Program-made: the position numbers and the translations under genes
Notes under the pieces: generated by a model
What the model was told of the DNA's origin: nothing
The model's database searches: none
Seen by the model: only the letters and a program-made list of their open reading frames with translations
Source: an uncultured bacterium
GTDB lineage: Bacteria; Lernaellota; Lernaellaia; Lernaellales; Lernaellaceae
Assembly (NCBI GenBank): GCA_964534375.1
Contig: CAZHPN010000007.1
Span: forward strand, 66 to 64,065
DNA: 64,000 bases
Reading direction: 5' to 3'
Shown here: piece by piece, positions 762 to 62,209 of the stretch
Layout: the number at the start of each line of letters is the position of its first letter
Position numbering within the stretch: position 1 is the stretch's first letter

Positions 762-2516
762 TTACGGCAGCAGCGACAAGATGTCGTAATTCGTCCAGAA
801 GTTCACCGCCGCCAGGTCGTAGCCGAGGATGCCGACGGGGTTGTAGGCGTTGATGTCCACGCCGGACGGCAGTTTGAAGCCGAAGAGCAGCACGACGTCA
901 TTGCTCGACGGCGTGATGTTCATCGCCGAAGTCGGGACCTGATAGCTCGTCTCCGTGCCCGGAACCTGCGCAAAGATCACCTTGCAGCCTTTGCACGCCG
1001 GGATATACGCGAGCATGTACAGATCGGGCGACTGCCCGCCGCCGGCCGCGAGCGTCCACGAAACCTCGCCCGTCGCGCCGTTGTAGGACGTGTTCGCGTC
1101 GTCGAACCAGGGCAGAAAATCCGCCGCGGCGTCGAACGAAACGCCGGAGGTCCACGCGCTCAGGTCGGTGGTGTATTTGATCGCCGCGGAAAAATGCGCC
1201 TTCGTCAGGTCGGAGGCCAGCAAATCGGTGGCGATCAGGCCCGTGATGTAAGCCGCATCGGTCACCTCGACGTAATCGAGCGCGCCGGCGCCGCTCTGCG
1301 CAATGGCGAGGCCGAACGGCACGAGCGCGCGGTGCGGCACGTCGGCGCCGATGATGCCGAGGTAATCGTAACCAGACGCCGAATTCGCCACCGCCAGCGG
1401 CAACGTGTGCTGCGGCGTTACGGATTCGAGTTCCGGCGCGCCGGCGCCGTTCCAGACCGGATCGACGCCGACGTAGGCGACGCCCAGCGCTTCGTTCAGC
1501 GCGGTCGGGATATACGGCGCCAGGCATTGCACCAGGCCGCTGCCGCCGGTGAGGCACGTCACCAACGTCAGCAGCTCGGTGACGTTGCTGAACACCTTCG
1601 CCACGTCGAGGCTGGCGACGACGCCCTCGATCGGCCACACCGTCGCGCCGCTCTGCACGGGCACCGCGAAATTGTCGTAACCGCCGGAAACCGAAAAGAC
1701 GTCCGGCACGGCCAAGTCGAGCGTCGGCAGAAAGATGTTGTCGTCGGTATAGTAAATGGTCGTGTTCTCGCCGAGCGTCAGCGTCATGTCCCACGTGCCG
1801 GCGGCCAGCAGCGCGCCCGGGGCGTCGAGCGAAAAGATCTCGCGTCGCGACACGCCGGGCAACGCCAGCCCGGCGTACAGCGGCTGCGTGAACAGCGTCG
1901 CCATATCGGGATTCGTCAGCGGCACGGGCGTGCCTTCCTGCGTGAAATCGCCGGCCGGCGAATCGGCGTAGGTGCGGCCGTAGCTGTCGGGCCGCAGGCG
2001 GAAGTACATCACAGCGGCGTCGGCTTGGTACGTCCAGGCCCAGTTGTTGGCGGCCCAGGCCGTGACGATGGGCGCGTCTTTGGCCAGCGGCAGCATGGCA
2101 TGGCCGCTGCTGTCGGTCGTGTAGGTTGTGCCGTTGTAGAGAACTTTGGCGCCGACCAGTGGCGCGCACGTGCCGTCGTCGTAAACGTAGGCGTCGATTT
2201 GCGTGGTCGGCGCGCCGCCGCCGATCAGGTTGCCGTCGCCGAGCGAGGCCGGGTCGGGCAGCGTGCACGTCAGCGGGGCGAACGTGTCGTCGTTGTCGTC
2301 GTTGTCGTCGTCGTTGTCGTCGTTGTCGTCATCGTCGTCGTCCGGGCTCGCGTCGTTGTCGTCGTTGTCGTTATCGTCATTGTCGTCATCGTCATCGAGG
2401 GTCGGCAAGTTCGGGTGATGGGTTGTGGATTTGGAATTGCCGCCGCCGCAACTCATCACGCAAACGGCCAGCAGGATGCACAACGCCGCGACCAGAGTCG
2501 AAACCGCAAATTTCAT
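762..2516 (-). CDS. Predicted lipoprotein with Asp/Asn-rich N-terminal linker and unknown beta-rich body
   Basis: Signal peptide ending VMS-C; D/N tract DDDDDNDDNDNDDNDASPDDDDDDNDDNDDDNDDNDD; then a carboxypeptidase-regulatory-like segment (APLVGAKVLYNGTTYTTDSSG). Confidence 0.8.
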   Translation of the reverse strand: MKFAVSTLVAALCILLAVCVMSCGGGNSKSTTHHPNLPTLDDDDDNDDNDNDDNDASPDDDDDDNDDNDDDNDDNDDTFAPLTCTLPDPASLGDGNLIGGGAPTTQIDAYVYDDGTCAPLVGAKVLYNGTTYTTDSSGHAMLPLAKDAPIVTAWAANNWAWTYQADAAVMYFRLRPDSYGRTYADSPAGDFTQEGTPVPLTNPDMATLFTQPLYAGLALPGVSRREIFSLDAPGALLAAGTWDMTLTLGENTTIYYTDDNIFLPTLDLAVPDVFSVSGGYDNFAVPVQSGATVWPIEGVVASLDVAKVFSNVTELLTLVTCLTGGSGLVQCLAPYIPTALNEALGVAYVGVDPVWNGAGAPELESVTPQHTLPLAVANSASGYDYLGIIGADVPHRALVPFGLAIAQSGAGALDYVEVTDAAYITGLIATDLLASDLTKAHFSAAIKYTTDLSAWTSGVSFDAAADFLPWFDDANTSYNGATGEVSWTLAAGGGQSPDLYMLAYIPACKGCKVIFAQVPGTETSYQVPTSAMNITPSSNDVVLLFGFKLPSGVDINAYNPVGILGYDLAAVNFWTNYDILSLLP

Positions 2517-2617
2517 CAGCGGATCTCCTTCTGCGCGCCGAACGCCGATGGGTTCGACGAATTACGGATGTTGCTGTTTGACGTTCATGATTACGCGCGA
2601 CCGAGCGGCGCGTCAAG

Positions 2618-3409
2618 TCAGTTGATCAGTTGCGCCGGCGGGCTGCCGAGCCGCGCCGCCGGATCCTGCCGGAAATAGGCGGCGAGCAACGCGTACAGAT
2701 CCGCATGCCGCGCCTGCAATTCGCGCGGCTTCTCGAAAAACGCCTCGGTCGCCACGGCAAAAAATTCGGCCGGGTTCGTCGCGCCGTATTTGCGCAGCAC
2801 GGTGCGGCGATGATGATCGCGGTCGTCGAGAAGCTGCGCGTACTCGGCGGCGAATACCTGCCGCCACGCGGCGTACGCGGCCCGGCTCGGCAGCCGCGGC
2901 ACGCCGTCGTGCGGGCCGGCTTCGTTGTCGAGCTGGTGCGCGAACTCGTGAAAAACGACGTTCTCGCCGTCATCCGGATTCTCCGCGTCGTACAAGACGT
3001 CGTCCCACGAAAGAATCACCTCGCCGCGGTTCCAGGCCTCGCCGATGCGGCTTTCGAGCCCTTCGACGACGGTGCCGTCGGCCAGATGGCGGGTCGCCGG
3101 GGCGAAATATTGTTCGGGGTAGACGACGATCGAGAGCGTCTCCGGATAATAATCGGCCTCGCGATGCAGCAGCAGGATGCACGCCTGCGCCGCGATCGTG
3201 ACGCGGACCTCGTCGGTGATCGCCTGGCCGCCGGCGCCCTCGATCTGCTTTTCGGCCAGAAACACCTGCACGTGGCCTCGCAGCTCGGCCCGTTCGTCCT
3301 CGGTCAGCAACTGATAATAAGGGACGTTGCGGTCGACGATCGCGAGCCATTCCGGCGGGAACGGCTCGCGCTTGAGGCGCTCGCGGCGGCGTTTTTTGAA
3401 ACCGAACAT
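2618..3409 (-). CDS. mtfA: MtfA-like zinc peptidase (M90 family)
   Basis: VTIAAQACILLL, GEAW...VILSW, NVVFHEFAHQLD (HExxH), YGATNPAEFFAVATEAFFE. Confidence 0.9.
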   Translation of the reverse strand: MFGFKKRRRERLKREPFPPEWLAIVDRNVPYYQLLTEDERAELRGHVQVFLAEKQIEGAGGQAITDEVRVTIAAQACILLLHREADYYPETLSIVVYPEQYFAPATRHLADGTVVEGLESRIGEAWNRGEVILSWDDVLYDAENPDDGENVVFHEFAHQLDNEAGPHDGVPRLPSRAAYAAWRQVFAAEYAQLLDDRDHHRRTVLRKYGATNPAEFFAVATEAFFEKPRELQARHADLYALLAAYFRQDPAARLGSPPAQLIN

Positions 3410-3575
3410 GCATTAGTTTTAGTCTATTTTCCGCCAAAGCAACAACGCGGAACCGCGAAGCGAACGAATTACGAGCATTCGCGGTTCCAAAAAACCCGCA
3501 GTCATCATCCTTGGCGGTTAATAACATCCTTGCGTCGCAGCGGCCCGGCACGATATCCTCGCGGGCGGAGGTCGG

Positions 3576-5106: not shown

Positions 5107-5802
5107 ATGAGATGGCGGATTTACTTTTTTTTATTGGCGCTCGCGGTCGTTGCGGCGGCGATCGTTGTGTATCTCGGCTGCAGCGCGGATTCCACGAGTT
5201 CGAGCAACAACAATACAGTCACGGTCAACATCACCGTCCTGCGCGACGACTTGTTCGGCTTGAATCTGAACCAGGTGATCGGGCAGGCGCAGTTCAACCC
5301 CGCGAGCGGCGACGTCGGCGTCAACGTGCAGGGTCAGGTCTATCTCGCGACCCTCTCGCGGTTCCCGAATCAACAGATCAACGTCGCCATCGAACTGGAA
5401 AACCAGGACGCCGCGCGCCAGCCGTGGACGGCCATCCAATGGGTGCAGCAGGGCAACCTGGAAAACACCAATTTCCCGATTCCGCTCGTGGAGACCATCC
5501 CGACGCTGCTGAATTTCCGGGTGCACGTCTACTATTATCAATACGCCAACGGCACAACGTCGGACGACGACAGTTCGCCGATCGGCGCCGTCGAAGGCTC
5601 GCCCGTCGCCGACGACGACGCCTCGCCGACCGACGACGATGACGACAATGACGACGACGCCTCGCCCGCGGACGACGACGCCTCGCCGGCCGATGACGAT
5701 TCGTCGCCGGCCGACGACGATTCTTCGCCGAGCAAGGTTTTCGACGCGGAAGGCGTGTTCTTGTTTCTGGTGAACCGCGGTCAGCCAAGCACGGGAAATT
5801 AG
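5107..5802 (+). CDS. Predicted lipoprotein with C-terminal DDDASPA repeats
   Basis: ATG 5107; signal peptide ending YLG-C; Ser/Asn-rich start; five DDD(A/S)SP(T/A/S) units; short hydrophobic tail GVFLFLV. Confidence 0.75.
   Translation: MRWRIYFFLLALAVVAAAIVVYLGCSADSTSSSNNNTVTVNITVLRDDLFGLNLNQVIGQAQFNPASGDVGVNVQGQVYLATLSRFPNQQINVAIELENQDAARQPWTAIQWVQQGNLENTNFPIPLVETIPTLLNFRVHVYYYQYANGTTSDDDSSPIGAVEGSPVADDDASPTDDDDDNDDDASPADDDASPADDDSSPADDDSSPSKVFDAEGVFLFLVNRGQPSTGN
5611..5733 (+). repeat. Coding 21-nt / 7-aa repeat DDD(A/S)SP(T/A/S) x5
   Basis: GACGACGACGCCTCGCCGACC, GACGACGACGCCTCGCCCGCG, GACGACGACGCCTCGCCGGCC, GATGACGATTCGTCGCCGGCC, GACGACGATTCTTCGCCGAGC, with one DDDDDN spacer. Confidence 0.9.
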
Positions 5803-13272: not shown

Positions 13273-13409
13273 AAATTCGGAACTCGGAATGCGGAATGCG
13301 GAATGCGGAGTGAACGGGCGTGGAGTTAGTGTGTCTGTCCTGGCCTAGCCGGGCGACGGACGGGTGTGGCGTCAACGATCCCATAAGTCCCATAACTCCC
13401 ATGACTCCC
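13273..13409. repeat. Composite intergenic element: 7-mer array plus 9-mer array
   Basis: AAATTCG GAACTCG GAATGCG GAATGCG GAATGCG (13273-13307); TCCCATAAG TCCCATAAC TCCCATGAC (13379-13405). Confidence 0.9.
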
Positions 13410-13446: not shown

Positions 13447-14820
13447 TCACAGCGAATCGATCTTCAGCCATTCGCCCGTCGCGCGAGGCAGCGTGACGGT
13501 GATCGTCGTGCCGACGTTCTCGACGCTTTCCACGTCGACCTCGCCGTGATTTTGGCGAACCATGTTCCGCACGATCGCCAGCCCCAGGCCGGTGCCGTGT
13601 GCCGTGCGTTCCTTCGCGTTGGTGGCGCGGAAGAATTCGGTGAAGAGGCGCGCGCGGTCTTTTTGCGGAATGCCGATGCCGGTGTCGGCGATCGCCAGGC
13701 GCACGCGGCTGTCGTCGGCGGACGCCCGGACCTTCAGGCGGCCGTCGTCGCGGTTGTATTTGACGGCGTTGCTGATCAGGTTGCTGGCCACCGTCTTCAC
13801 GTCGTCCGGATCGGCCAGGGCGATCGCCTCCGGATCGAGGTCGAGATCGACCGCCAGGCGCCGTTCCTCGATTTGCGGGCGGTAGGCCTCGATCGTCCTT
13901 TCCACGACGGCCTTGAGCGGCACGGGTTGGTTTTGAAATTCGACGCGGCCGGCGCGCTCGATGGTCAGCAGGTCCTGCAACAATTCCATCAACTGGTCCA
14001 GCCGTACGCCGACCCGGCGCACGCCGTCCTGCTGCTTCTCGCCGAGCGGGCCGAAGGCGCCGGCGCCCATGATGCGGATGATCGATTGCGCCGCGGCGAT
14101 CGGGCTGCGCAATTCGTGGGTCATCGACCGGCGATACAGTTCGCGTTTTTTTTCGGACTCGATCAGTTCGTCCATGGTGCGCTTGTAGCGGACCTGCAAT
14201 TCACGTTCTTCGTTTTCGGCGGCGCGCACGCGATCGATGATCATCGTCGTCAGCCAGATCAAGCCGGCCCACAACACCGCGCAGCCGGCGAGCACGCCGA
14301 AGATGAACCCCCGGTCGCGGTAGAGCCCGTCGACGGCCGGCGCGAACAACGGCCAGTGCGGCAGCCAGCCGAAATATTCGGTGAGGAACAACACGCACAG
14401 GATGAACCAGAGAAAGGCGACGATGCGGATCACTTTCGGCCGCTTGAAGAAGATGCAGGCCATCACGATGTGGATCGAATAGAACCAGACGATCGGTGAG
14501 AGCACGCCGCCGGTGTAATGAACGAGCGCCGTGATGGCGAGAAAATCGAGGAACATCTGCAGGCCGGCGAACCGCAGCAGTTCGGCGATGGTCCCCGGGT
14601 TCAGGCGTTTGTCCCGCCACCAGAGGTAGCCGTTGCAGACGACGATCCCCGCGGCGATTTGCGTCAGCGCCGATAGCGAAATCGGCAGCCCGAACGCCGC
14701 TTTGAAAAACGCGCCGCCGAGCACGATCACGATCGGCGGAACCCACCGGACGCGCGTAAACGTCCGCATCGCGAGCGAAAGCTGCTGCTCCAACGGCAAG
14801 TGAATGGTCGAGGCGTACAT
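13447..14820 (-). CDS. Membrane sensor histidine kinase
   Basis: Multiple N-terminal TM helices; MTHELRSP, NLISNAVKYN, DTGIGI, GTGLGLAI; start may be 14874. Confidence 0.9.
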   Translation of the reverse strand: MYASTIHLPLEQQLSLAMRTFTRVRWVPPIVIVLGGAFFKAAFGLPISLSALTQIAAGIVVCNGYLWWRDKRLNPGTIAELLRFAGLQMFLDFLAITALVHYTGGVLSPIVWFYSIHIVMACIFFKRPKVIRIVAFLWFILCVLFLTEYFGWLPHWPLFAPAVDGLYRDRGFIFGVLAGCAVLWAGLIWLTTMIIDRVRAAENEERELQVRYKRTMDELIESEKKRELYRRSMTHELRSPIAAAQSIIRIMGAGAFGPLGEKQQDGVRRVGVRLDQLMELLQDLLTIERAGRVEFQNQPVPLKAVVERTIEAYRPQIEERRLAVDLDLDPEAIALADPDDVKTVASNLISNAVKYNRDDGRLKVRASADDSRVRLAIADTGIGIPQKDRARLFTEFFRATNAKERTAHGTGLGLAIVRNMVRQNHGEVDVESVENVGTTITVTLPRATGEWLKIDSL

Positions 14821-15040
14821 CACTCCCCCGCCGCGCGCGGCTGCGCGATGGAAGATATTTAACAATGGTAACATGACACTTTCGCCGGCGGCAATCAAAT
14901 TGTACGACTTGCGCCCTATTTGCGTGAAAGGCGCAATTCCTGCGCCGATCCTCCGAAATCGGTCTTTTCAACCCGGGGCGCGTGCGAGTAATATCGGGGC
15001 GAATCAACGAGCGGTCCAAATCATTCCTTGGGGGTGCGCG

Positions 15041-16173: not shown

Positions 16174-16201
16174 GGGCGGGCGTGATGCCCGCCCTTTTTT
16201 T
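16174..16201 (+). terminator. Intrinsic terminator
   Basis: GGGCGGGC-GTGAT-GCCCGCCC followed by T7. Confidence 0.9.
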
Positions 16202-29498: not shown

Positions 29499-29522
29499 GT
29501 AGCCGTCTATAGTCGGATGACC

Positions 29523-30008: not shown

Positions 30009-30168
30009 GGAAAAAGGAAAAAGGAAAAAAAGGAAAGCGGCGGCGCGGGCGTTTGGTGACGGGGTGATCGCCGCCGCACGCACGTTGGCAAGACGCCAGC
30101 TTTCAGCTTCGCAGCGTCACCTGCCTTTCAGCCCCGCGGTCGTGCCGCGCAGCCTCTCAGCCTTTCAG
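30009..30168. repeat. Intergenic (GGAAAAA)3 array and CAGCCT(C/T)T 8-mer array
   Basis: GGAAAAA x3 at 30009-30029; CAGCCTCT CAGCCTTT CAG at 30150-30168, touching the stop of the next gene. Confidence 0.7.
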
Positions 30169-32246
30169 TCTCCGTAGTGCTTCCAGTACCGGCGGCTCGG
30201 GGTCTGGAAATTCAAATCGAGGCGTTCGCCGTTGAAGTTGATGATCGTGTCGTTCGTGCCGTAGGCCTGGGTGGCGTATTTGTTGTCCCAGCGATCGTAC
30301 GGGCCGAGGTCGACGGTTTGGCCGGCGACCGTCATCGGGCCTTCGCGGCCGACGACGACCAGGCCCTGGCTCGGCGAATCGTATTCCACGTCGCTGCCAA
30401 TCGTCACTTTGGCGTTTTCGATGTCGCTGACGAACTGCGAGAACTCGCCGTTAGCCGTGGCGTCGCCGAGCTCGACGATCCAGACGTTTTCTTCGCCGTC
30501 GGCGATCAATTCGTAATCGTTGGCGGTCGACCACGTCGTCGGGTTTTGCGAATAGAGCGCGAGGTACGAATCGCCCTTCTTGCCGATCGTCCAGTTGCCG
30601 GATTGGACGACCTGGTCGAACCCCGACTGCTGGAAATAGGCGTGGGTGTACTTGGTGCACAGGCCGTCGATCAGCGGCAACGTCGGCCGCCAATATTGCA
30701 GGACGCCGACGTTCTTGTAGTACGTGCCGCGCGGCTGCCAGCCGCCGGTCCATTGGCCGTCGTCGCCGGTGGAGAGGCTTGGGTAGGTGGTCGTTACGAA
30801 GGCGTTCTTGTCGATCGTCGCCAGCCAGACGAGCACCTGCGCCGACCAGACCGCCGGTTTGTAATCCTGCGCGCCGGAAAGCTGATAATACGCCGTGCGG
30901 TAGGTGTACGTGCTGGATTCCTCCAACTCCACGCCCTGCGACAGCGGCGCGAGCAAATTCGCCGCGTCTTTCAGCAGCGGGCTGCCGACCAGCGGCTTGA
31001 GGAACGTCAGGCCGCTCCAAAGATAGCCTTTCCACAGGTCGTATTGATTGACGAGGGCGAAAGTGCCTTCGATCACGTCCGGCGCCACGTAGCCCGTGGT
31101 TCCCCACCAGAAAATGACGTCGTTCACCGCCGTGTAGCCGATGCCGTATTTCGGCCCGTTGACGAGATTGACGCTATCGGTCTGCTTGTTTTCGAAACTG
31201 GCCTTCGCGTCGTTGGCGATGTCTTCCATGATCGGCGGCGGCCAATACTTCTTGCTGGTGGCGAGCATCGTGCCCGTGAATTCGGCCGGATTTTGCGACG
31301 CGCACAGGCCGAGCATGATGTGCGCCGCTTCGGTCGTCGAGTCGCTGAGGCCGTTGAGCATGTGATCGGAATAGGTGCGGCCGTGGCTCGTCGCGTAAAG
31401 CCCGTTGTAATAGTTCGAGGCGAAATCGAAATTCAACACGTCAAGCGCCATGTGGGCTTCGAGCGCGATGTCCGGATCCTCCGCAAAGTCGGCAAGGTTG
31501 ACCAGCGCGGGCATATCCTCGTCGAAGTAAACGTTCGAGTGGAATTCAGAGAAGCCGAACAAACCGCGCATGTCGAGCCAGCGTTTTTCGAGCGGTTGCC
31601 CGTGGGCGACGTGCTGCTGGCCGGTCATGCCCGAGTTGGTGAAGATGCTGGTTGGGAAAAGCTGGCCGGCGAGGATTTCCGCTGAGTGGTACAGGTTCTG
31701 ATGATTTTCGGACCACCAGCACAGATCGTCCGGCCCGGTTTCGTCGAGCCAATACTTGAAGCCGAGGACCGTCGTTTCGATCGACTGCCGCAAGGCGGCC
31801 GGCAGCACATGCTTGTCGTTGTCCAGATAGAGGATGCGCAAGAGCGCGGCCATGTCGAAGTCCGACGTGTCCTGCCGCGCGTTAACCTTCGTCAGCGACG
31901 CGTTGATCGCATCTTCGTCGAACGTCGTCTGGCCGGTGGCGACGCGGCAGCATTGCGCGTCGAGCCCGCCGCCCGCGCCCGGCGCGCCGGCCGCGCTGCA
32001 CGCCGCGAGATACGCCGCCTGCCGGCTCAAAAATCCGGCCGTGGGCAGAATTGGGTCGCCGCTGTCGTCGTCGGCGGGCGAAACGTCGTCGTCGGCCGGC
32101 GACGCGTCGTCGTTGTCGTCGTCATCGGGCGTGGCGTCGTCGTCCGCGGCGGTCGATGACGACGACGACGTGCCGCTGCACGTTAAAGCGGCGAACGAGA
32201 AAACAATCACACCCAAGAGTGAGAGCAGGCTACGATGGAAGGGCAT
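30165..32246 (-). CDS. Predicted lipoprotein with Asp-rich linker and large unknown domain (possibly lyase/heparinase-like)
   Basis: Signal peptide ending ALT-C; DDDATPDDDDNDDASPADDDVSPADDD; motifs WWSENHQ, FSEFHSNVY, HGRTY; fold call is weak. Confidence 0.75.
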   Translation of the reverse strand: MPFHRSLLSLLGVIVFSFAALTCSGTSSSSSTAADDDATPDDDDNDDASPADDDVSPADDDSGDPILPTAGFLSRQAAYLAACSAAGAPGAGGGLDAQCCRVATGQTTFDEDAINASLTKVNARQDTSDFDMAALLRILYLDNDKHVLPAALRQSIETTVLGFKYWLDETGPDDLCWWSENHQNLYHSAEILAGQLFPTSIFTNSGMTGQQHVAHGQPLEKRWLDMRGLFGFSEFHSNVYFDEDMPALVNLADFAEDPDIALEAHMALDVLNFDFASNYYNGLYATSHGRTYSDHMLNGLSDSTTEAAHIMLGLCASQNPAEFTGTMLATSKKYWPPPIMEDIANDAKASFENKQTDSVNLVNGPKYGIGYTAVNDVIFWWGTTGYVAPDVIEGTFALVNQYDLWKGYLWSGLTFLKPLVGSPLLKDAANLLAPLSQGVELEESSTYTYRTAYYQLSGAQDYKPAVWSAQVLVWLATIDKNAFVTTTYPSLSTGDDGQWTGGWQPRGTYYKNVGVLQYWRPTLPLIDGLCTKYTHAYFQQSGFDQVVQSGNWTIGKKGDSYLALYSQNPTTWSTANDYELIADGEENVWIVELGDATANGEFSQFVSDIENAKVTIGSDVEYDSPSQGLVVVGREGPMTVAGQTVDLGPYDRWDNKYATQAYGTNDTIINFNGERLDLNFQTPSRRYWKHYGD

Positions 32247-41347: not shown

Positions 41348-41353
41348 CCGCGG

Positions 41354-49381: not shown

Positions 49382-50251
49382 TCAAATCGGCGGCGGCGCG
49401 GGCGCGACGGGCAGCAGGTCGACGGCGCGCGCGAAACGGAAATCCGCGAGCAGCCGGCGCAGTTTTTTTTCAAACGTGCGCAAGCCGATGTAATGTTTCA
49501 GCCGGGCGCCGAGGCGGGCGTCGATCCGCCGTTGGTCCGGCGCGAATTCCCACGGATGGACGTAAATCACGGCCGGGGCGGCCGATTGCGCGTGGACGCG
49601 CCGCAAGCCGGCGCGGATCAACCAATACGGATACATACGAAAATAGCCGCCGCCGGCGAACGGCAGGCTGCGGCCCGCCACGTCCAGGCGCGTCAACGGC
49701 AATTCCAGCAGGGCGCCGACGCCCGGCCGCTCGATGACCGTCGGCCGGCGATCCGCGCCCAGGAAACCGACGGGAACCTTGCGGCCTGGAAAGAGGCTCG
49801 AATCGTAGCGAAACCCCTCTTCGATCAGCACGTCGAAAACCCAGAGGTTGCTGTGGTTGATCGAGAAACTCGGCGCGCGAAAGCCAGCGGGGCGGCCGCC
49901 GCCGGCGTTGGCGATGGCGTCCTTTGCGGCGTGCAGGTCGGCGCGGAATTCCGCCGGCGTCATTTGCAACAGGCTGCGGTGCGCAAAGCCATGGCAGGCG
50001 ACCTCGTGGCCGGCCTCGGCGATTTCGCGGACCAACTGCGGCCAGCGCTGGGCGATCCACCCCAATACGAAAAACGTGGCGCGGACATTATGCTCCGCGA
50101 ACAACGCCAGCAGCCGGCGCGTGGCGTCGGGGCAGGTCGGCGGCAACGTTTCCCAGGTCTCGCGCGCGATGTACGGCGCCAGGTTGAGCGCGTGGAAATA
50201 ATCCTCCACATCCACGGTCAGGGCGTTGACGATTTCCGCGGGCTCATTCAT
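49382..50251 (-). CDS. Polysaccharide deacetylase, XrtA/PEP-CTERM-locus type (DUF3473)
   Basis: LTVDVEDYFH, HEVACHG..H, GFRAPSFS, YDSS, AGGGYFR, HPWE. Confidence 0.9.
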   Translation of the reverse strand: MNEPAEIVNALTVDVEDYFHALNLAPYIARETWETLPPTCPDATRRLLALFAEHNVRATFFVLGWIAQRWPQLVREIAEAGHEVACHGFAHRSLLQMTPAEFRADLHAAKDAIANAGGGRPAGFRAPSFSINHSNLWVFDVLIEEGFRYDSSLFPGRKVPVGFLGADRRPTVIERPGVGALLELPLTRLDVAGRSLPFAGGGYFRMYPYWLIRAGLRRVHAQSAAPAVIYVHPWEFAPDQRRIDARLGARLKHYIGLRTFEKKLRRLLADFRFARAVDLLPVAPAPPPI

Positions 50252-50784
50252 CGCGTCAGTTTCACTCCGTCGAGATAAAGCGTCACCCGCCGGTCGGTGC
50301 GCCCGAAGTAAAAGAGAATGCGGCGCATGGCGCCGAGATTTTGCGGCCGGCCGCCGTTGCCGCGGGCGATGCGGTCGAGCGGCACCCGTACGTGCTGCGG
50401 CGCGCCGGTGAGCGGCACGGCCAACTCGAAGCGATCGGCGAAAGCGGTCGCGTCGCCGCGATCGTCAATGCGAATCATCAAGGTCTCGCCTTGCAGGTCC
50501 GGCGCCCAGAGGTCCGCCTCGAACCACGTGTAGCCGCGCCAATCGCGCGGCACCTTCCACAATTCGACCGTCGGATACTCGCCGGCCGGGAATTCCATCT
50601 TCAGCCCGTGGGCGCCCGAGGTCGCGAACTCTGTGGTCTGCTCCAACCAATAATGGCAACGCCACTTCAAACAGTCCAGATCTCTTGCCGTTTCGAAATC
50701 ATTGATCATCAAGACGTCGGAATTGCCGCAACCGAAGGCGACCGCCGCCAAGAGCAGCGCCGCGGCCCAATGACGGCGGATCAT
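50248..50784 (-). CDS. Predicted lipoprotein, possible carbohydrate-binding (galactose-binding-like) fold
   Basis: Signal peptide ending AFG-C; NDFE, YP, PRDWRGY, IRIDD; ATGA overlaps on both sides; fold call is weak. Confidence 0.65.
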   Translation of the reverse strand: MIRRHWAAALLLAAVAFGCGNSDVLMINDFETARDLDCLKWRCHYWLEQTTEFATSGAHGLKMEFPAGEYPTVELWKVPRDWRGYTWFEADLWAPDLQGETLMIRIDDRGDATAFADRFELAVPLTGAPQHVRVPLDRIARGNGGRPQNLGAMRRILFYFGRTDRRVTLYLDGVKLTR

Positions 50785-51602
50785 GACCGGCCCTCCATCA
50801 ACACCACTTCGGGCGGCCGCGCCAAGCGCGCCGGAATATGGCTTTCGCCGACGCCGCGCGTGACGAACATCGGGGTCCGACCCTCGTAAAACCAGCCGTA
50901 GCGGTATTTCTTCACGGGCGCTTGCGTGATCAGCGGGTAAACCCAATACGGCGCGATGATCTGGCCGCCGTGCGTGTCGCCGGCAAGGATCAGCGACGGA
51001 TGAAACGCGCTGGCGAACGGCAGCGTCTGCGGATAATGAACCATGACGATGCTCGGCCGCTCGGGCGTGATGCTCCGCCGGCATGTCTCGTCCCAGCCGT
51101 GAGAATCCTCCCCGTCCAAGCCGACGAGCGTGACCTTGTCGTCGGCGATCGTCACGGCTTCGTTGCGCAGGAATCGCACCGGCAGGTCGTGCCGCAGTTC
51201 GCGGCTGCCGGGCACGTGGCAGTAAATGCAGTTGCGGACGCGGCCCATGTAATCGGCGTCGCCCAGCACCGCGTAGACGCCCTTGCGCGCGTGGAACTGC
51301 TTCGCAACTTCCATCGCCGGCCCGGCGTCGGCCTCATACCACACCATGTCGCCGGCGATCAGCAGGTAATCGGGGTCCAGCCGCTGGAGCGTATCCAGCA
51401 ACAACTTCGTCTTCGGCCAGTTTTTTCGAATGTGCAGATCGGAAATCAGCGCAATGCGTTGACCGGCGAGCGCCGCGTTCAGATCCGGCGGCAGGTCGAT
51501 GCGGGTGACGCCCAGGCGAAAGGGCTCGATCCGCCACGCGTACACAACGACCGCGCCGAGGACCAGCGACGCGAACACGCCGACGCGGGCGCCGCGCGTC
51601 AC
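50781..51602 (-). CDS. Calcineurin-like metallophosphoesterase (YkuE-like) with altered metal ligands
   Basis: GTG start overlapping the upstream TGA; ISDLH, AGD, GDAD (canonical GNHD), VHYP, GDTHGGQ (canonical GHTHGGQ), TRGVG..R...PPEV. Confidence 0.85.
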   Translation of the reverse strand: MTRGARVGVFASLVLGAVVVYAWRIEPFRLGVTRIDLPPDLNAALAGQRIALISDLHIRKNWPKTKLLLDTLQRLDPDYLLIAGDMVWYEADAGPAMEVAKQFHARKGVYAVLGDADYMGRVRNCIYCHVPGSRELRHDLPVRFLRNEAVTIADDKVTLVGLDGEDSHGWDETCRRSITPERPSIVMVHYPQTLPFASAFHPSLILAGDTHGGQIIAPYWVYPLITQAPVKKYRYGWFYEGRTPMFVTRGVGESHIPARLARPPEVVLMEGRS

Positions 51603-53155
51603 GAGCCGAGCCTCGCTTTGGCCAGACTGAGAAAATCGCCGGACGGTCGCAGGAAGAAGCCGTGCAGGCGGTTCGGCACGACGGCAATGTTGTCGGCCCA
51701 CCACAGGCTGACGTAGACGCAATCTTCCGCGAGTTGTTTTTGCACGAGGCCGTACAGCCGCCGGCGTTCGATGCGGTCGCCGGTCCGCCGCGCCTCTTCC
51801 AGCCACCGGTCCACGTCGGCGTTGGCGTAACGGCCGCGGTTCGCGCCGCGGGGAGGCTGCATCGAGGAGTGAAACGCGTAGAACAGATGGTCCGGATCCG
51901 AGACGCCGACCCAGACCAGCGTGTAGGTTTCGAAATTGCCGCGTTTGACGTCCTCGAAAAACGTGCCCCATTCCAAACTGCGGCGCTCCAGACTGATGCC
52001 GACCGCCGCCAACTGGTTGGCCATCACCTCGGCGATGCGCAGCCGCAGCTTGTCGGTGCTCGTTTTGTACGACAGCGTAAACCGCGGGCCACGGCCGCCG
52101 GCGGGCAACGGGAAACCGGCCTCGTCGAGCAGCCGCCGGGCGCGGTCCGGATCGTATGGATATTGGCGCACGTCGGCCTCGTAGGCCCAATTGCCCGGCG
52201 CGAGCAAACCAGTCGCCGGTCGGGCCTGTCCGTAAAGCATCGTCTTGATAATCTGGTCACGGTCGAGGGCGTAGGCGATGGCCTGCCGCACTTTCGCGTT
52301 GCTCACAATTCCGCGCGGGTCCGCCAGGTTGAAGCCGAGGTAGCTGTAGTTGCCGCCCGGCGCGCGCAACATCTGCCGGCCCGGCAATTCTTCCGCGTAT
52401 TTGAGCGCGTACGGCGGCGTGCAATTTTGCAAGACGTCGAGTTCGCCCTTGGAAAGCCGCAGCAACCGCGTGGTGTCGTTGGCCACGACGAAAAACTGAA
52501 GTTGTTTGATGGCCGGCGGCCCGTCGCGCCAGCGTTCGTTGGCGGCCAGAACGACCTTCTCGCCGCGACGCCACTCCGCCAGGCGATACGGGCCCGACCC
52601 GACCGGTTCGGCGGCGAGGAGGTCGGGCTCTTGCAACCGGGCGGGCACGATCGGCTGCGTCAGCTTGTTGAGAAACGAGGCGAACGGCTCGCGCAGGTGC
52701 AACTGCACGGTCCGCTCGTCGGGGGTCGCGATCGCGTCGAGGCGGCTGAAAACATCCTGCGTGGGGCAGGCGCGGCGCGGATCGGCCAGAAAGCGAAACG
52801 TCGCCGCGGCGTCGGCGCTCGTCACCGGCGCGCCGTCCTGCCAAACGGCGCCGGCGCGCAGCGTAAAACGGTACGTCAAGTCGTCCGGCTGCTCCCAGCT
52901 TTCGGCGAGCGCCGGGGCGACGCCGCCGTCGCCGGGGTCGGTCAGCAGCCCTTCGTACACCAGGCCGAGAATGCGCGTCGAATAGGCGTCGGTCGCGTAT
53001 CGCGGATCGAGACTGGTCGGGTTGCCTTCCAGGCCGATGCGCAACGCGTCGGCCGGCGGCGCGGCGCCGGAACAGGCGGCGAGCAAGGAAGCGAGAGCGA
53101 GAAACGCCGCGGCGCCCCCCGCGGCTCGGCGAAGGGCGGGCCGGCGCGGCGACAC
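51599..53155 (-). CDS. ABC transporter substrate-binding lipoprotein, family 5 (peptide/nickel)
   Basis: LAA-C lipobox, SLDP, VYEGL, LAESWE, GSGPYRL, VRQAIAYALDR. Confidence 0.93.
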   Translation of the reverse strand: MSPRRPALRRAAGGAAAFLALASLLAACSGAAPPADALRIGLEGNPTSLDPRYATDAYSTRILGLVYEGLLTDPGDGGVAPALAESWEQPDDLTYRFTLRAGAVWQDGAPVTSADAAATFRFLADPRRACPTQDVFSRLDAIATPDERTVQLHLREPFASFLNKLTQPIVPARLQEPDLLAAEPVGSGPYRLAEWRRGEKVVLAANERWRDGPPAIKQLQFFVVANDTTRLLRLSKGELDVLQNCTPPYALKYAEELPGRQMLRAPGGNYSYLGFNLADPRGIVSNAKVRQAIAYALDRDQIIKTMLYGQARPATGLLAPGNWAYEADVRQYPYDPDRARRLLDEAGFPLPAGGRGPRFTLSYKTSTDKLRLRIAEVMANQLAAVGISLERRSLEWGTFFEDVKRGNFETYTLVWVGVSDPDHLFYAFHSSMQPPRGANRGRYANADVDRWLEEARRTGDRIERRRLYGLVQKQLAEDCVYVSLWWADNIAVVPNRLHGFFLRPSGDFLSLAKARLGS

Positions 53156-56432: not shown

Positions 56433-56465
56433 AGTATAAATATACTACTCAATGACTCAATGCAA
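56433..56465 (-). promoter_or_regulatory. AT-rich putative promoter of the dksA operon with a tandem 8-mer
   Basis: Minus strand TTGAGT-16 bp-TATACT; plus strand ACTCAATG x2 (56447-56462). Confidence 0.45.
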
Positions 56466-56579
56466 GGCCGCTACGGGACAAAAAAACCCGCGCACCCACT
56501 TGATTTCCGCCCCATTTTTCGGCCCGACGCCGCTTCCTTTCGCTTGCGGGCCGGACGCCGAGCCGGCATAGTGTCGCGC

Positions 56580-58556
56580 ATGCGCCGCACCCTCGCGCCG
56601 GTCGTGCTTCTCTTGGCGATGGCGACCCTCGTCGGGGCGCAAGAACGCCTCGACTTGCTTCCCGGTCACGGCCTGCCGACCCTGCCCGCGCCGGACCGCA
56701 GCGGGTTCCGCCTCGCGGTCGGCGGCCAGACCGTCTTACACGTCGCGCCGGAGGGCGAAAACCGCGCCCGCCTCATCGAGACCAACGGTGCGGCGCGCAT
56801 CGTCGATCTGCCGCCGGCGCTGGCGCTGGCGATCGCGCGGCCGGCCGCATCGCCGGCCGGCCCGCCGCCGCGACTCGTGTCGGCGGATTTCTCGACGCTC
56901 TACGACGGCGTCACGCTCCTGCTCGCCGATCCACCGCCGGCCGTGCCGCTGCGCTGGAGCGCGACGTTGCGGCTGACCACCGACGCCGGCCACGTCGGCA
57001 ACAGCCGCGTGGCGCTCCTCCGCCGCGGCGAGCGTCCGCCGAACGCCGAACTGGATCGGCAACTCGAACGGTTGGTCGCCGCCAACCCGCTGCCGCCGCT
57101 CGCCGGCGGCGCCGCACGATTGGATGTAGTCGTCGCAGCGACGCCGGGCTTACGCCCGATGTTGAGCGTTTGGGTGAGCGAACCCTATGCGGAGGACGCC
57201 GACTGGCTCGCGCCGCTCAGTCGCGGTTGGCTGATGCAAGAACCGATCGGCTGGCCGACGGCGGTCGTCGACGCGAAATCCGCCGCCCCGGTGCGTGCCG
57301 CGTACGCCGGCGATTGGCAGGCGGCCAAGGCCGAGCTGCTCGCGCAACTCGCCGCCCCGGGCGGACGGATGCTGTTCGGAAATTGGCGTTTTGGGGCCGC
57401 CTCGACGCTCGCGGCGGCGCGGCAGGCCCTGGCCAGCGCGCCGCCGGGGAAGGCCGATCGACTCGTCTTCCTGGGGGCCTGGGCGTTGGCGCGTGAGCGG
57501 CGGTTCGCCGAGGCGCAGCAATGGATGGCGCAAATCGGCGCCGGCTCGCGCGACGCCGCGCTGGCCGCCGAGGCCCGTTGGCTGGCGCTGGCGTGGCGCC
57601 GTCGCCTGGGCGGCGATGCGCGTCTGACGCCGCGCGCTCCGGCCAACGACGCGACGCGTTTTGTCTGGCAGATTCGGCTGAACGGCGATGACGGGTCCGC
57701 CGCCGGTGATTGGCGCGCCGCCGGCGCCGCGCTACGCAAATTCGGCGCCGAACCGGCGCGCGACGACGCCGATTTCGTGCAGCGGGCGCTGGTCGCGCGC
57801 GCCGCGAGCGCGCTGGCGAACGCCGCGGCGGAACTGCCGCCGCTGGCGGCGGCGGCCCTTTTCGCCGAATGGACGAACGCGGAAACGCCGGCGGCCGACT
57901 GGGCGCTGTTCGACGCCGGCGCCGCTTTGCTCGCGGCCGGCCGGCCGACCGTCGCGCTCGAGGCGTTTCGCTGGCTGCTCGGCGAATGCCCGTTCTCGCC
58001 GTTGGCCCCGCAAGCGGCGTGGGCGGCGCAACGAGCGGCCGCCGCGGGCGACCGTGAGCTGGCCAAGGCCGCGGCGTGGCGCATCGCGGCGGATTGCGCG
58101 CCCGATTCGGACTGGCTGACGGCGCGCGACGAGGCGGAAGAAATGCCCGAATGGCAGTCGGCCGTCGCTTTGCGTGCGCCCGCCGCGGCCGAGGTTCGCC
58201 TGCGGGCGCTACGCTGGCTGCGCGACGCCGAGTTCGCGGACTACTTGACTGCCGGCGGCGGGGAGACCCTGAGCGCCGCCGAGCGCGCTGCACGTTTGCT
58301 GCTCGACGAAGCGCCCGGCCCGGAGTGGCGCCGCCTCGATTGGCTGGCCCTGGGCGACATCCTGCACACCGCCCGCCGCCTGCCGGAAGCGGCGCAAGCC
58401 TACGCCAATGTCGCGCTGGACAAATGCGACGACGAGTTGCGGCGCTCGGCGCTGCGCTCGCTCGCCGCCTCGCTGACGCCCGACGCGCGGCGCGTCGCTC
58501 TCGCCCTCGCCGGCGACGCGAGGTTCGGTCCGCTGCTGGCGCCGTTGCGGCCCTGA
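56580..58556 (+). CDS. Exported Ala-rich TPR-like protein
   Basis: Signal peptide MRRTLAPVVLLLAMATLVGA; helical repeats (ALEAFRWLL..CP.SPLA; LGDIL...RLPEAAQAY). Confidence 0.65.
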   Translation: MRRTLAPVVLLLAMATLVGAQERLDLLPGHGLPTLPAPDRSGFRLAVGGQTVLHVAPEGENRARLIETNGAARIVDLPPALALAIARPAASPAGPPPRLVSADFSTLYDGVTLLLADPPPAVPLRWSATLRLTTDAGHVGNSRVALLRRGERPPNAELDRQLERLVAANPLPPLAGGAARLDVVVAATPGLRPMLSVWVSEPYAEDADWLAPLSRGWLMQEPIGWPTAVVDAKSAAPVRAAYAGDWQAAKAELLAQLAAPGGRMLFGNWRFGAASTLAAARQALASAPPGKADRLVFLGAWALARERRFAEAQQWMAQIGAGSRDAALAAEARWLALAWRRRLGGDARLTPRAPANDATRFVWQIRLNGDDGSAAGDWRAAGAALRKFGAEPARDDADFVQRALVARAASALANAAAELPPLAAAALFAEWTNAETPAADWALFDAGAALLAAGRPTVALEAFRWLLGECPFSPLAPQAAWAAQRAAAAGDRELAKAAAWRIAADCAPDSDWLTARDEAEEMPEWQSAVALRAPAAAEVRLRALRWLRDAEFADYLTAGGGETLSAAERAARLLLDEAPGPEWRRLDWLALGDILHTARRLPEAAQAYANVALDKCDDELRRSALRSLAASLTPDARRVALALAGDARFGPLLAPLRP

Positions 58557-58560: not shown

Positions 58561-58630
58561 ATTGCGGATTGCGGATTGCGGACTGCCGATTGCCGAAATT
58601 CTCGGCGTCCTCTGCGTCCTCGGCGGTTAA
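58561..58630. repeat. Composite element: 7-mer array plus 9-mer array between convergent genes
   Basis: ATTGCGG x3, ACTGCCG, ATTGCCG; then CTCGGCGTC CTCTGCGTC CTCGGCGGT TAA. Confidence 0.9.
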
Positions 58631-60173: not shown

Positions 60174-60214
60174 GTGTCTAGTTCCAACCTGTTCGGCCAA
60201 TAGAGGAGGATGAC

Positions 60215-62209
60215 ATGAAGGCGAGGATTTTTTCACTAATGGGTCTCGCGCTTTTGCTGGGCTTGATCGTTGGCGTCGTGGCGTCTTGCGGCAGTACAAG
60301 CAGCAAGGCCAGCAGCCAACAGGCCGACGACGACAATGACGACAATGACAACGACACGACGGACGACGACGGGTCGCCTACGCCGGACGACGACGACAAC
60401 GACACGACGGATGACGATGTGTCGCCTCCGGACGACGATGACGACGCCTGCAGCGCCAGCAATTGCCCGAGCGGCTGTTGCGACGCCAGCGGAACCTGCC
60501 AGCCCGGCACCGCCAATGGCGCGTGCGGCACGAACGGCGCGGGCTGCATCGCCTGCAGCGCCGGCAACGAATGCACGAATCAAAGTTGCGTCGCTTATTG
60601 CGCTCCGACCGACTGCGCGACGGGATGCTGCAGTGGAACGACATGCGAGGCCGGAACCGCGGCTGCCCAGTGCGGCGCGGCGGGCGCGGCCTGCGTCGCC
60701 TGTGCGACCGGACAAGCCTGCGTCAGCGGCGCCTGCGTGTGCAATGCGGCCAGTTGCCCGAACGGCTGCTGCGACGCCACCGGCAATTGCCAGCCGAGCG
60801 TCGTCGCCACGTGCGGCTTGGACGGCGTGGTCTGCGTCGCCTGCGCGACCGGGCAAGCCTGCGTCGACGGCGCGTGCACGTGCGACGCGGCCAGTTGCCC
60901 GAGCGGCTGCTGCGACGCGAGCGGCAACTGCCAGCCCGGCGACACGGCTGCCGTCTGCGGCGGCAGCGGCGGCGCCTGCGTCGCCTGCGCGACCGGACAA
61001 GCCTGCGTCAACGGCGCGTGCACGTGCGACGCGGCCAGTTGCCCGAGCGGCTGCTGCGACGCGAGCGGCGACTGCCAGCCAGGCGACACCGACGCCGTCT
61101 GCGGCGGCAGCGGCGGCGCCTGCGTCGCCTGCGCGACCGGGCAAGCCTGCGTCAGCGGCGCCTGCACCTGCGACGCGGCCAGTTGCCCGAGCGGCTGCTG
61201 CGACGCCGGCGGCAACTGCCAGCCCGGCGACACCGATCCGGTCTGCGGCGGCAGCGGCGGGGCCTGCGTCGCCTGCGTCACCGGGCAAGCCTGCGTCAGC
61301 GGCGCCTGCACCTGCGACGCCGCCAGTTGTCCGAACGGCTGCTGCGACGCGAGCAGCCTCTGCCAGCCTAATGCCCCCGCCGCTTGCGGCACAGACGGCG
61401 AATCCTGCTTCGCCTGCCGGACCGGGCAAGACTGTGTCAGCGGCGCGTGTACGTGCGACGCGACCAGTTGCTCGGCGGGCTGTTGCGATGTGAACAACGA
61501 CTGCCAGGCCAACGCCCCCGGCACATGCGGCACGGACGGCGAGGCCTGCTTCGCGTGCGCCGCAGGCCAAGACTGCGTTACGGGCTTGTGCACGTGTGAC
61601 GCGACCAGTTGCCCGAACGGCTGCTGCGACGGAAGCGGCAACTGCCAGGCGGGCGCGGTTCTGACCGCGTGCGGCACCGGCGGCGTCTCGTGCGTCGATT
61701 GCTCGGCTTTGACGAATGAGTACTGCGGTCCGCAGCAAGCGTGCGTGGCCGACGACGCCGAAACGGTGTGGACCGATTCGACTTCCGGGTTGACGTGGCA
61801 GGACGGCGAAACGGTCGGGACTACGCCCTCCGATTTCGCGGATGCCCCGACTTACTGCACGGGTCTGACGTGGAACGGTCTCACCGGCTGGCGTTTGCCT
61901 GACGTCGACGAACTGCGCAGCCTGCTGCGCGGTTGCACCGGCACGGACACGGGCGGGTCCTGCGGCGTGACCGATTCGTGTTTGAACTCGACTTGCGTGA
62001 CTGGCGCCTGCGCCGGCTGCTCCAGTTTGGGCGGTCCGGCCCCCGGCGGCGCCTACTGGCCCGCGCAAATCACCGGCAGCATCAATTATTATTGGACGGC
62101 ATCGGCGGAGGGCGACGTCTCCGGCAACGGGTGGTACGTCGATTTTCGCGACGGCGCCGTGGCGGGCCTGGACGGCAACAACGGCGGCTCGTTGCGTTGT
62201 GTGCAATAG
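60215..62209 (+). CDS. Lipoprotein: Asp-rich linker, nine 10-Cys repeats, C-terminal DUF1566 (Lcl)-like domain
   Basis: VAS-C lipobox; DDDNDDNDNDTTDDDGSPTPDDDD; repeats; TDSTSGLTWQ...GWRLP..DELRSL...YYWTAS...WYVDF..G...LRCV. Confidence 0.88.
   Translation: MKARIFSLMGLALLLGLIVGVVASCGSTSSKASSQQADDDNDDNDNDTTDDDGSPTPDDDDNDTTDDDVSPPDDDDDACSASNCPSGCCDASGTCQPGTANGACGTNGAGCIACSAGNECTNQSCVAYCAPTDCATGCCSGTTCEAGTAAAQCGAAGAACVACATGQACVSGACVCNAASCPNGCCDATGNCQPSVVATCGLDGVVCVACATGQACVDGACTCDAASCPSGCCDASGNCQPGDTAAVCGGSGGACVACATGQACVNGACTCDAASCPSGCCDASGDCQPGDTDAVCGGSGGACVACATGQACVSGACTCDAASCPSGCCDAGGNCQPGDTDPVCGGSGGACVACVTGQACVSGACTCDAASCPNGCCDASSLCQPNAPAACGTDGESCFACRTGQDCVSGACTCDATSCSAGCCDVNNDCQANAPGTCGTDGEACFACAAGQDCVTGLCTCDATSCPNGCCDGSGNCQAGAVLTACGTGGVSCVDCSALTNEYCGPQQACVADDAETVWTDSTSGLTWQDGETVGTTPSDFADAPTYCTGLTWNGLTGWRLPDVDELRSLLRGCTGTDTGGSCGVTDSCLNSTCVTGACAGCSSLGGPAPGGAYWPAQITGSINYYWTASAEGDVSGNGWYVDFRDGAVAGLDGNNGGSLRCVQ
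60449..61747 (+). repeat. Nine coding repeats of about 47-50 aa with 10 Cys each
   Basis: C-x4-C-x3-CC-x4/5-C-x7/8-C-x6-C-x2-C-x5-C-x4-C; units starting at 60881, 61025, 61169 and 61313 are exactly 144 nt apart. Confidence 0.95.

Follow-up and report, generated by a model that had tools for sequence, protein, structure and literature searches.

The long aspartate tracts described here are probably intrinsically disordered, polyanionic linkers of Sec-exported and mostly lipid-anchored proteins in Lernaellota/FEN-1099 and several Myxococcota-like lineages. We studied them in four lipoprotein-like genes, P1 to P4, on a stretch of 64,000 nucleotides of contig CAZHPN010000007.1 (hereafter the window), which has a G+C content of about 65% and stems from an uncultured bacterium that probably belongs to Lernaellota/FEN-1099. 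The sequencing runs holding window sequence are wetland and peat metagenomes. Usually, the tract lies between a putative lipidated-Cys anchor and the globular cargo, the anchor being an N-terminal lipobox or, in relatives, a C-terminal MYXO-CTERM signal. More rarely, as in P2, it connects two portions of one exported protein. The conserved property of the tracts is their composition alone, namely about 57% Asp combined with small or polar residues and Pro, with Glu, Lys, Arg, His and aromatic residues almost absent. They apparently grow, shrink and swap their repeat unit fast, by duplication or slippage of short GAC-based units.

Results

Four lipoprotein-like genes with unrelated cargo share an aspartate tract

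Translation of the window recovered all four open reading frames (ORFs) where the first-pass annotation of this DNA had placed them: P1 at 762..2516 (minus strand), P2 at 5107..5802 (plus), P3 at 30165..32246 (minus) and P4 at 60215..62209 (plus). As described there, each begins with a signal sequence ending in Cys and a Ser/Gly-rich start and contains a tract of Asp and Asn, which was confirmed by an Asp scan. The gene calls of P1, P2 and P3 are matched by independent calls on other assemblies. Identical proteins are encoded in three to at least four independent assemblies (one contig measures 113 kb), which rules out an assembly artefact as the source of the tracts. The proposal that the cargo is unrelated held as well. 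No significant mutual similarity was found between the cargo domains (best BLASTP E-value 0.007 over 63 aa), and searches of P1 to P4 against Pfam and NCBIfam gave a single match, Lcl_C in P4. Tracts are present in four of the six lipoprotein-like genes of the window and in none of its roughly 50 other genes. The association is significant in Fisher's test (p=1.5e-5), computed on a tally of four out of five because the sixth lipoprotein-like ORF was recognised afterwards.

Composition and DNA repeats of the tracts

The tracts of P1 to P4 comprise 27–56 aa, mostly Asp, without any Glu, Lys or Arg, and were the only hits among the real genes of the window in a six-frame scan for at least 7 Asp per 15 residues. 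Matches to the DNA pattern for DDDx[ST]P number 10, as compared to 0.06 expected (100 shuffles), and all ten are in frame in P2, P3 and P4. P1 lacks an exact unit and carries DNDASP; the DDD-x-(S/T)P unit attributed to all four proteins thus holds for three of them. Sites of the type D-[ST]-[ALIVMT] are absent from the tracts of P1, P2 and P3, and P4 has two DTT sites. No Pfam match to thrombospondin type 3, RTX or EF-hand profiles was obtained with any of the four proteins.

At the DNA level, the tracts are imperfect tandem repeats of 9–51 nt. The period is 9/15/21 nt in P1, 21 nt (7 aa; 6 copies, 75% matches) in P2 and 48 nt (84% matches) in P4. GAC makes up 86% of the Asp codons in the tracts as compared to 73% in other genes (p=0.006). 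The excess of GAC together with the tandem repeats suggests growth by duplication or slippage rather than codon-independent selection. The first-pass annotation had read the mixture of GAT and GAC as a sign of selection on the protein. Such a mixture exists but is a weak argument, and the conclusion drawn from it fails in view of the GAC bias.

Composition gives a different hint. Asp and Glu are equally frequent in the background proteome (6.0% and 6.2%), and the preference for Asp over Glu is therefore specific to the tracts. In the Asp linkers of the P3 family the ratio of Asp to Glu is 770:10, His and Tyr amount to 0.1% and 0.4%, and Thr, Ser and Pro contribute 5–7% each. Glu, His and Tyr, which are one mutation away, are thus nearly absent, whereas Thr, Ser and Pro, which require at least two changes, are common. 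This is not the composition of decaying poly-GAC, and it favours, to some degree and without proof, selection on tract composition.

Variation among orthologues

The P3 family has at least 300 homologues, the best 120 of which were used for linker analysis. A lipobox is present in 103 of these 120, and the segment from the Cys to the conserved PIEPSxGYLxRQAEYL spans 6–79 aa in all but one. Twenty-seven linkers are rich in Asp. They are 26–79 aa long (median 51) and contain 56.5% Asp, 0.7% Glu and a single Lys/Arg in 1,362 residues; Candidatus (Ca.) Alcyoniella australis, a member of the phylum Lernaellota, is among their hosts. Short linkers (median 21 aa) prevail among the remaining 76, in which Pro, Gly and Ala are abundant. 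The homologues that carry names are assigned to Ca. Lernaella and Ca. Alcyoniella, both of Lernaellota, or bear the label Deltaproteobacteria or Myxococcales, and none is assigned to Bacteroidota. All 13 full-length homologues of P1, two of them from Ca. Lernaella stagnicola, possess a lipobox and an Asp linker, and the tracts of P2 orthologues vary between about 30 and 80 aa.

The sequence of the tract is not maintained. Its length and repeat unit differ already between P0001 and P0002, two P3-family proteins of 86% identity, and homologues of P1 use units as diverse as DDDTT, DDDTG, DDDIV and DDNDDN. Many linkers of P3 orthologues, for instance those of P0017, P0045 and P0060, are devoid of S/T-P. 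Comparison of orthologues thus reveals that the tract keeps its position and composition, in contrast to its sequence and length. It is hypervariable and predicted to be disordered, a linker rather than a folded module. On these grounds it is not a single conserved DDD-x-(S/T)P module, as proposed earlier, and S/T-P glycosylation is unlikely to be the common role: the differing units and the many linkers without S/T-P argue against a glycosylation sequon as a shared function, and the known sequon is absent from three of the four window tracts.

Signal peptides and lipobox

The N-termini of P1 to P4 consist of Lys/Arg, an uncharged hydrophobic stretch and a Cys (C23, C25, C23 and C25, respectively), followed by a stretch rich in Ser, Gly and Thr. 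The signal peptide of P1, MKFAVSTLVAALCILLAVCVMSC (2448..2516, minus strand), ends in Cys23, the putative lipidation site according to lipobox inspection. Those of P2, MRWRIYFFLLALAVVAAAIVVYLGC (5107..5181, plus), and P3, MPFHRSLLSLLGVIVFSFAALTC (32178..32246, minus), end in Cys25 and Cys23. The strict lipobox definition of PROSITE PS51257, {DERK}(6)-[LIVMFWSTAG](2)-[LIVMFYSTAGCQ]-[AGS]-C with the Cys at position 15–35, is matched by P4 alone. The other three miss it at one position each, P1 with Cys at −4, P2 with Tyr at −3 and P3 with an atypical Thr at −1. The Cys itself is well conserved. Cys25 of P2 is invariant in the alignment of its seven-member family, at least 90% of the 91 homologues aligned with P3 retain Cys23, and the signal ends in Cys in 13 of 13 full-length P1 homologues. 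A MYXO-CTERM-type tail, i.e. a C-terminal Cys motif, a transmembrane (TM) helix and an Arg-rich end, was not found in any coding-like window ORF of at least 100 aa.

Occurrence in related genomes and in metagenomes

When one genome per species was scanned for DDDx[ST]PxDDD, at least 110 loci matched. The matches listed, to which the figures of this and the next paragraph refer, concentrate in a few metagenome-assembled genomes (MAGs), namely fen_1099, the founding genome of FEN-1099/Lernaellota, several MAGs labelled 'bacterium' or 'Deltaproteobacteria' and one Myxococcota MAG. A further group is labelled 'uncultured Rickettsiales' and comprises CAZLEO, CAYRNR, CAZXHG, CAZDDH and others (e.g. 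loci L009–L011, L020, L043 and L095). It has a G+C content of about 70%, many Asp-linker lipoproteins and MYXO-CTERM signals. The high G+C content and the MYXO-CTERM signals make this label look mistaken, and the MAGs look Myxococcota-like. When the window was compared at the DNA level with all fetched loci, only its own contigs matched, indicating that the window genome is absent from the loci of the motif scan.

A strict PROSITE-style test missed many obvious signals in the related loci. It was substituted by a relaxed, deliberately permissive rule that was applied identically to coding-like motif ORFs and background. By this rule, a lipoprotein-like signal precedes the tract in 38 of 57 motif ORFs with an intact 5′ end as compared to 76 of 435 background ORFs (p=6e-14). 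The tracts are 14–96 aa long, and a median of 8 aa separates the Cys from the first DDD. Position +2 after the Cys is occupied by Pro, Gly or Ser, and by Asp in only 3 of 48 cases although Asp accounts for 59% of tract residues. S/T-P was found in 33 of 48 tracts, a set partly selected on the motif. C-terminal tracts are followed directly by a Cys motif, a TM helix and an Arg-rich tail. Of seven such tails, four lie above the curated cut-off of 20 bits for TIGR03901 (MYXO-CTERM). Internal tracts were seen in P2 and at loci L024 and L105.

Neighbouring ORFs in motif-rich MAGs, which had not been selected for the motif, contain an Asp tract in 34 of 334 cases. Tracts occur in 25 of the 67 lipoprotein-like neighbours and in 9 of the 267 others (p=8e-13); most of these nine are adjacent to MYXO-CTERM or have a signal that the rule missed, and none is clearly cytoplasmic. 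Within the limits of sample and predictor, tracts are thus not equally common in cytoplasmic proteins, an outcome that the first-pass annotation had named as evidence against its proposal. Its expectation of a large genome-wide class is borne out by the same neighbours and by metagenomes: in each of four wetland metagenome runs, between 204 and 1,425 contig pieces match the P1 tract at 90% identity or more (more than 1,000 in the deepest run), which shows that the Asp-tract class is abundant in wetland communities. Short-read (Logan) contigs end inside the P1 tract, where thousands of unrelated contigs with Asp tracts accumulate. The summed depth of contigs over the tract (2278–2412; runs X1–X4) is hundreds- to thousands-fold above that of the flanks, reaching 22,482 against 8 in X1.

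As to cargo, arylsulfotransferase, RCC1 and beta-helix families were seen both with and without a tract, which is therefore not required. A comparison of cargo families between tract-bearing and tract-free lipoproteins as a test of sorting revealed no clean partition. MopE-like metal-binding Cys/Asp motifs are the commonest cargo of tract-bearing lipoproteins (4 of 30), and both solute-binding lipoproteins seen, SBP_bac_5 in the window and Peripla_BP_2 in a MAG, are free of a tract. At locus L088 of MAG CAZEDX01 (about 2,900–3,500, minus strand), an ORF of 194 aa has nothing besides a signal peptide, DDDSWF/DDDTY repeats over about 100 aa and a MYXO-CTERM signal (21.7 bits, cut-off 20). Its sequence suggests a 'linker-only' surface-anchored polyanion with regularly spaced aromatic residues, in which case the tract can be the payload.

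Individual features of P1 to P4

P1 is a lipoprotein-like protein of 584 aa without recognisable family (no Pfam or NCBIfam match). Its family seems restricted to Lernaellota-like bacteria, and a homologue of 48% identity is encoded at L088. The Asp/Asn tract at aa 41–77, DDDDDNDDNDNDDNDASPDDDDDDNDDNDDDNDDNDD (2286..2396, minus strand), begins 17–18 aa past Cys23.

P2 has 231 aa and combines a beta-sandwich, the Asp tract and a conserved C-terminal tail, as deduced from translation, family alignment and an AlphaFold2 (AF2) model. Mean pLDDT of the model is 63, with strands at residues 38–145, values below 50 in the tract and tail strands at 209–229 with a pLDDT of about 82. Foldseek returned only generic Ig/FN3-like matches. 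The tract, aa 153–208 (5563..5730, plus strand), contains six DDD(A/S)SP units and is internal. It is not close to the N-terminus but is located after a domain of about 120 aa, some 128 residues past Cys25, and connects the beta-sandwich to the tail. This tail, SKVFDAEGVFLFLVNRGQPSTGN (= FDAEGVFLFLVNRGQPSTGN; 23 aa, 5731..5799, plus strand), is shared by the whole seven-member family, and the prediction for it is a beta-hairpin. It may dock back onto the beta-sandwich, which would turn the Asp tract into a long loop.

P3 is a lipoprotein-like protein of 693 aa whose cargo, an (alpha/alpha)-toroid plus beta-sandwich, resembles polysaccharide lyases according to AF2 and Foldseek. The model has a mean pLDDT of 92.7 (95–99 in the domain next to the tract), and residues 22–49 and 52–54 are below 50. 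Foldseek matches to PL8, PL17, PL15 and PL12 lyases reach a probability of 1.0 but TM-scores of just 0.2–0.27. The Asp tract, aa 35–61, DDDATPDDDDNDDASPADDDVSPADDD (32064..32144, minus strand), starts 11–12 aa past Cys23. Some family members carry a fused GH88 unsaturated glucuronyl hydrolase domain (PF07470), in agreement with a role in the degradation of polysaccharides, and others have an N-terminal DnaJ_C-like region (PF01556) where the signal peptide would be. One or the other arrangement was noted in two sets of proteins, P0035, P0077 and P0089, and P0084, P0091, P0096, P0097, P0104 and P0114. Metatranscriptome contigs of P3 are confined to the gene body. The gene seems to be transcribed in situ, carry-over of DNA being another possible source.

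In P4, a lipoprotein of 664 aa, the Asp tract is accompanied by Cys-rich repeats of 48 aa and by an Lcl_C domain at the C-terminus (PF07603, E=4e-14, aa 519–663). Its Asp/Asn tract, aa 38–77, DDDNDDNDNDTTDDDGSPTPDDDDNDTTDDDVSPPDDDDD (60326..60445, plus strand), starts 12–13 aa past Cys25. The Cys-rich tandem repeats cover 60671..61648 (plus) with 6.9 copies of a 144 nt (48 aa) unit at 81% DNA identity. Other assemblies break in this region, where gene callers report an antisense ORF of 360 aa and a 154 aa Lcl_C fragment (L116, L118) instead of the real gene.

Other features of the window

Two lipoprotein-like ORFs without a tract served as contrast. One is the SBP_bac_5 solute-binding protein at 51599..53155 (minus strand; LLAAC followed by SGAAPP), and the other has 178 aa and lies at 50248..50784 (minus; MIRRHWAAALLLAAVAFGC followed by GNSD). 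None of the candidates for the two GT-C-like glycosyltransferases, which had been tentatively linked to the tracts, was confirmed. The ORF at 13447–14898 is a histidine kinase, and 56460–58556 encodes a secreted Ala-rich protein without TM segments. The protein at 16200–18689 (minus strand), which may be the one meant, has 829 aa, several N-terminal TM segments, a WVDDAAISF motif past the first of them and a long soluble C-terminal part; it gave no match in Pfam (E up to 1e-3), NCBIfam (E up to 1) or PDB sequences. Pfam notes on matching contigs (L002, L003) place a HicA toxin/HicB antitoxin pair at about 41100–41581. Intergenic heptamers are tandemly repeated at four sites: AATGCGG (5 copies, 13274–13309), ATTGCGG (4.7 copies, 58561–58593), CCGAATC (5.4 copies, 29521–29557) and CCGAACC (6.3 copies, 36990–37033). 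The AATGCGG and ATTGCGG arrays have near-identical units and are 45 kb apart.

Discussion

Among the roles offered by the first-pass annotation, that of a spacer is best supported. The idea of a lineage-specific display or sorting tag stands in so far as the tract is shared, restricted to certain lineages and attached to exported, lipid-anchored proteins. A tag that acts through its position is unlikely, as tract position varies and includes C-terminal sites ahead of MYXO-CTERM. Dense negative charge and Pro would keep the chain extended, and repulsion from an anionic membrane would hold the cargo off its lipid anchor. An acidic sequence right past the signal peptide would be compatible with Sec export because no basic residues are placed there, and the scarcity of basic and hydrophobic residues would leave few protease sites. 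Cation binding may come as a side effect. Comparable segments are known elsewhere. Disordered N-terminal linkers are present in about half of the outer-membrane lipoproteins of E. coli (bioRxiv 10.1101/2021.01.05.425367). For MYXO-CTERM proteins, lipidation of the Cys and display at the cell surface are predicted, and in Myxococcus they are thought to be cleaved by myxosortase; their model substrate TraA has an adjacent disordered region (PMC11980579).

Several observations weigh against this interpretation. The tract of P2 is not strictly proximal to the anchor, and among the four lipoboxes only that of P4 is canonical, the others deviating at one position each. The lipoprotein predictor is home-made and over-calls (17–20% of background ORFs are positive), and the related loci were found via the motif itself, a bias that the analysis of neighbours removes only in part. 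GAC enrichment and tandem-repeat DNA fit a mutation-driven expansion; selection for Asp is thus not demonstrated. Lipoproteins with the same cargo occur without a tract, which is hence not a requirement. Finally, the physical rationale of extension, membrane repulsion, protease resistance and Sec compatibility is our inference.

Neutral expansion of low-complexity sequence would explain the tracts as Asp runs that arise by slippage or duplication of GAC and persist in unconstrained tethers and interdomain linkers without a function of their own. This account overlaps with a spacer role and agrees with the imperfect tandem repeats, with the rise in GAC from 73% to 86% and with differences in length and repeat unit even between close orthologues (P0001 and P0002, and within the P1 family). 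In addition, orthologues of other lineages manage with linkers of 6–20 aa that are not rich in Asp, and the same cargo families exist with and without a tract. We nonetheless regard it as rather unlikely. The composition is unlike that of decayed poly-GAC (Glu 0.7%, His 0.1%, Tyr 0.4%, but Thr, Ser and Pro at 5–7% each), with just one Lys/Arg in 1,362 linker residues. No clearly cytoplasmic protein was found to have a tract in the window scan or among the unselected neighbours, Asp is avoided at +2 past the Cys (3 of 48) despite its share of 59%, and the habit recurs in at least two distant lineage groups. A further alternative is a sorting or surface-export signal, i.e. an acidic stretch past the lipidated Cys that would direct proteins to the surface or to vesicles, or govern recognition by Lol or by type II secretion (T2SS). 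Many relatives start their Asp run at +3 (C-G-DDDD) and thereby resemble the acidic export signal of Bacteroidota, tracts accompany MYXO-CTERM, which is itself a surface-sorting tag (PMC11980579), and the lack of a tract in both solute-binding lipoproteins (SBP_bac_5 and Peripla_BP_2) is a small hint in the same direction. With a start between +12 and +18 in P1, P3 and P4 and some 128 residues past the Cys in P2, a length of 14–96 aa far above that of a recognition motif, internal tracts (P2, L024, L105), cargo families on both sides and a host outside Bacteroidota, a sorting signal is quite improbable.

A cation-binding layer, in which poly-Asp would bind Ca2+, Mg2+ or metals, buffer them, bridge lipopolysaccharide or minerals, or nucleate or inhibit mineral formation, could be combined with a spacer. 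The choice of Asp over Glu (770:10), the L088 protein with the tract as apparently its whole payload, the MopE-like motifs as the commonest cargo (4 of 30) and the Ca2+ binding of eukaryotic poly-Asp proteins such as calsequestrin (PMC8080761) would suit it. The tracts have no conserved geometry, as P1 to P4 do not match thrombospondin type 3, RTX or EF-hand profiles and the spacing between Asp runs is highly variable, and we judge this layer to be unlikely. The same grade applies to a broader version, in which the tracts form a lineage-wide functional surface polyanion, either as a lipid-anchored 'brush' that binds Ca2+, metals or minerals or as a charge-based code for surface display; it would agree with the linker-only protein of L088 and with the strict choice of Asp rather than Glu. 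O-glycosylation of Ser/Thr-Pro units by a membrane glycosyltransferase, as in mycobacterial lipoproteins or at the D-(S/T)-(A/I/L/V/M/T) sites of Bacteroidota, is very improbable. It could invoke S/T-P in 33 of 48 tracts of a partly motif-selected set, the two D-T-T sites of P4 and the multi-TM protein of no recognised family at 16200–18689. Against this stand the many orthologous linkers without S/T-P (P0017, P0045 and P0060), the tracts of P1, P2 and P3 without D-[ST]-[ALIVMT] and the failure of every window protein tested to match a PMT or GT-C family.

If disordered polyanionic linkers they are, the tracts mark lipoproteins and surface-anchored proteins of the barely studied phylum Lernaellota/FEN-1099 and of several Myxococcota-like lineages. 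As a working rule, an Asp tract beside a Cys anchor points to an exported, lipid-anchored protein. The tracts also matter for annotation. Contigs break at the P1 tract, gene calling fails at the repeats of P4 and low-complexity sequence could seed spurious similarity, so that recognising the tract as a linker helps annotators to delimit the real cargo domains. A wetland metagenome contains hundreds to more than 1,000 tracts, which suggests that their carboxylate groups add up to a non-trivial pool at the cell surface in these habitats. A polyanion brush, if it exists, would give Lernaellota and some Myxococcota-like bacteria a protein-based equivalent of teichoic acids or capsule. The findings raise the question why a whole lineage would use near-pure Asp, for which charge extension, protease resistance, cation binding and ionisation at acidic peat pH are candidates.

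Comparison with known systems

The literature, which was covered incompletely and included the paper on Lernaellota, yielded no account of long, nearly pure Asp linkers throughout the lipoproteins of Lernaellota or Myxococcota-like bacteria. Disordered lipoprotein tethers, acidic signals after the Cys and disordered regions beside MYXO-CTERM are already known. Pro/Thr- or Ser-rich linkers occur in secreted carbohydrate-active enzymes, and Thr-rich, O-mannosylated linkers in mycobacterial lipoproteins. Like the Asp tracts, these are extracytoplasmic segments of low complexity and lineage-typical composition that join anchors or domains, and S/T-P overlaps in part. In contrast to the polyanionic tracts, for which glycosylation is unsupported, they are neutral and often glycosylated. 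The tail of calsequestrin, a eukaryotic poly-Asp Ca2+ binder (PMC8080761), has similarly long Asp runs but belongs to unrelated organisms, a different context and another architecture.

The lipoprotein export signal (LES) of Bacteroidota is an acidic motif of about 4–5 residues at +2 to +5 past the Cys with a demonstrated role in sorting to the surface or to vesicles (PMC5080379, PMC6222051, PMC10319031). Both LES and Asp tracts place negative charges shortly after the lipobox Cys of exported lipoproteins. However, the tracts extend over tens of residues, start at +3 to +18 or much later and occur in a different phylum, and sorting has been shown for LES alone. In the window, no Asp run falls at +2 to +5; the runs start at +18 (P1), +12 (P3), +13 (P4) and about +128 (P2), and some P3-family orthologues have one from +3. 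MYXO-CTERM proteins such as TraA (PMC11980579) share a disordered stalk beside a Cys predicted to be lipidated, and the Asp tracts of relatives directly precede TIGR03901. P1 to P4 differ in that all of them lack MYXO-CTERM, and a search of PMC11980579 found no mention of aspartate. The tethers of E. coli outer-membrane lipoproteins (bioRxiv 10.1101/2021.01.05.425367) are likewise disordered, fold-free segments of variable length between the lipidated Cys and the domain. They are not Asp homopolymer-like, whereas the tracts presented here contain about 57% Asp, reach up to about 80–96 aa, are built from repeats, are lineage-specific and are also found at C-terminal or internal positions. A near-pure-Asp linker employed throughout a lineage thus seems undescribed, yet it is a variant of the known flexible tether.

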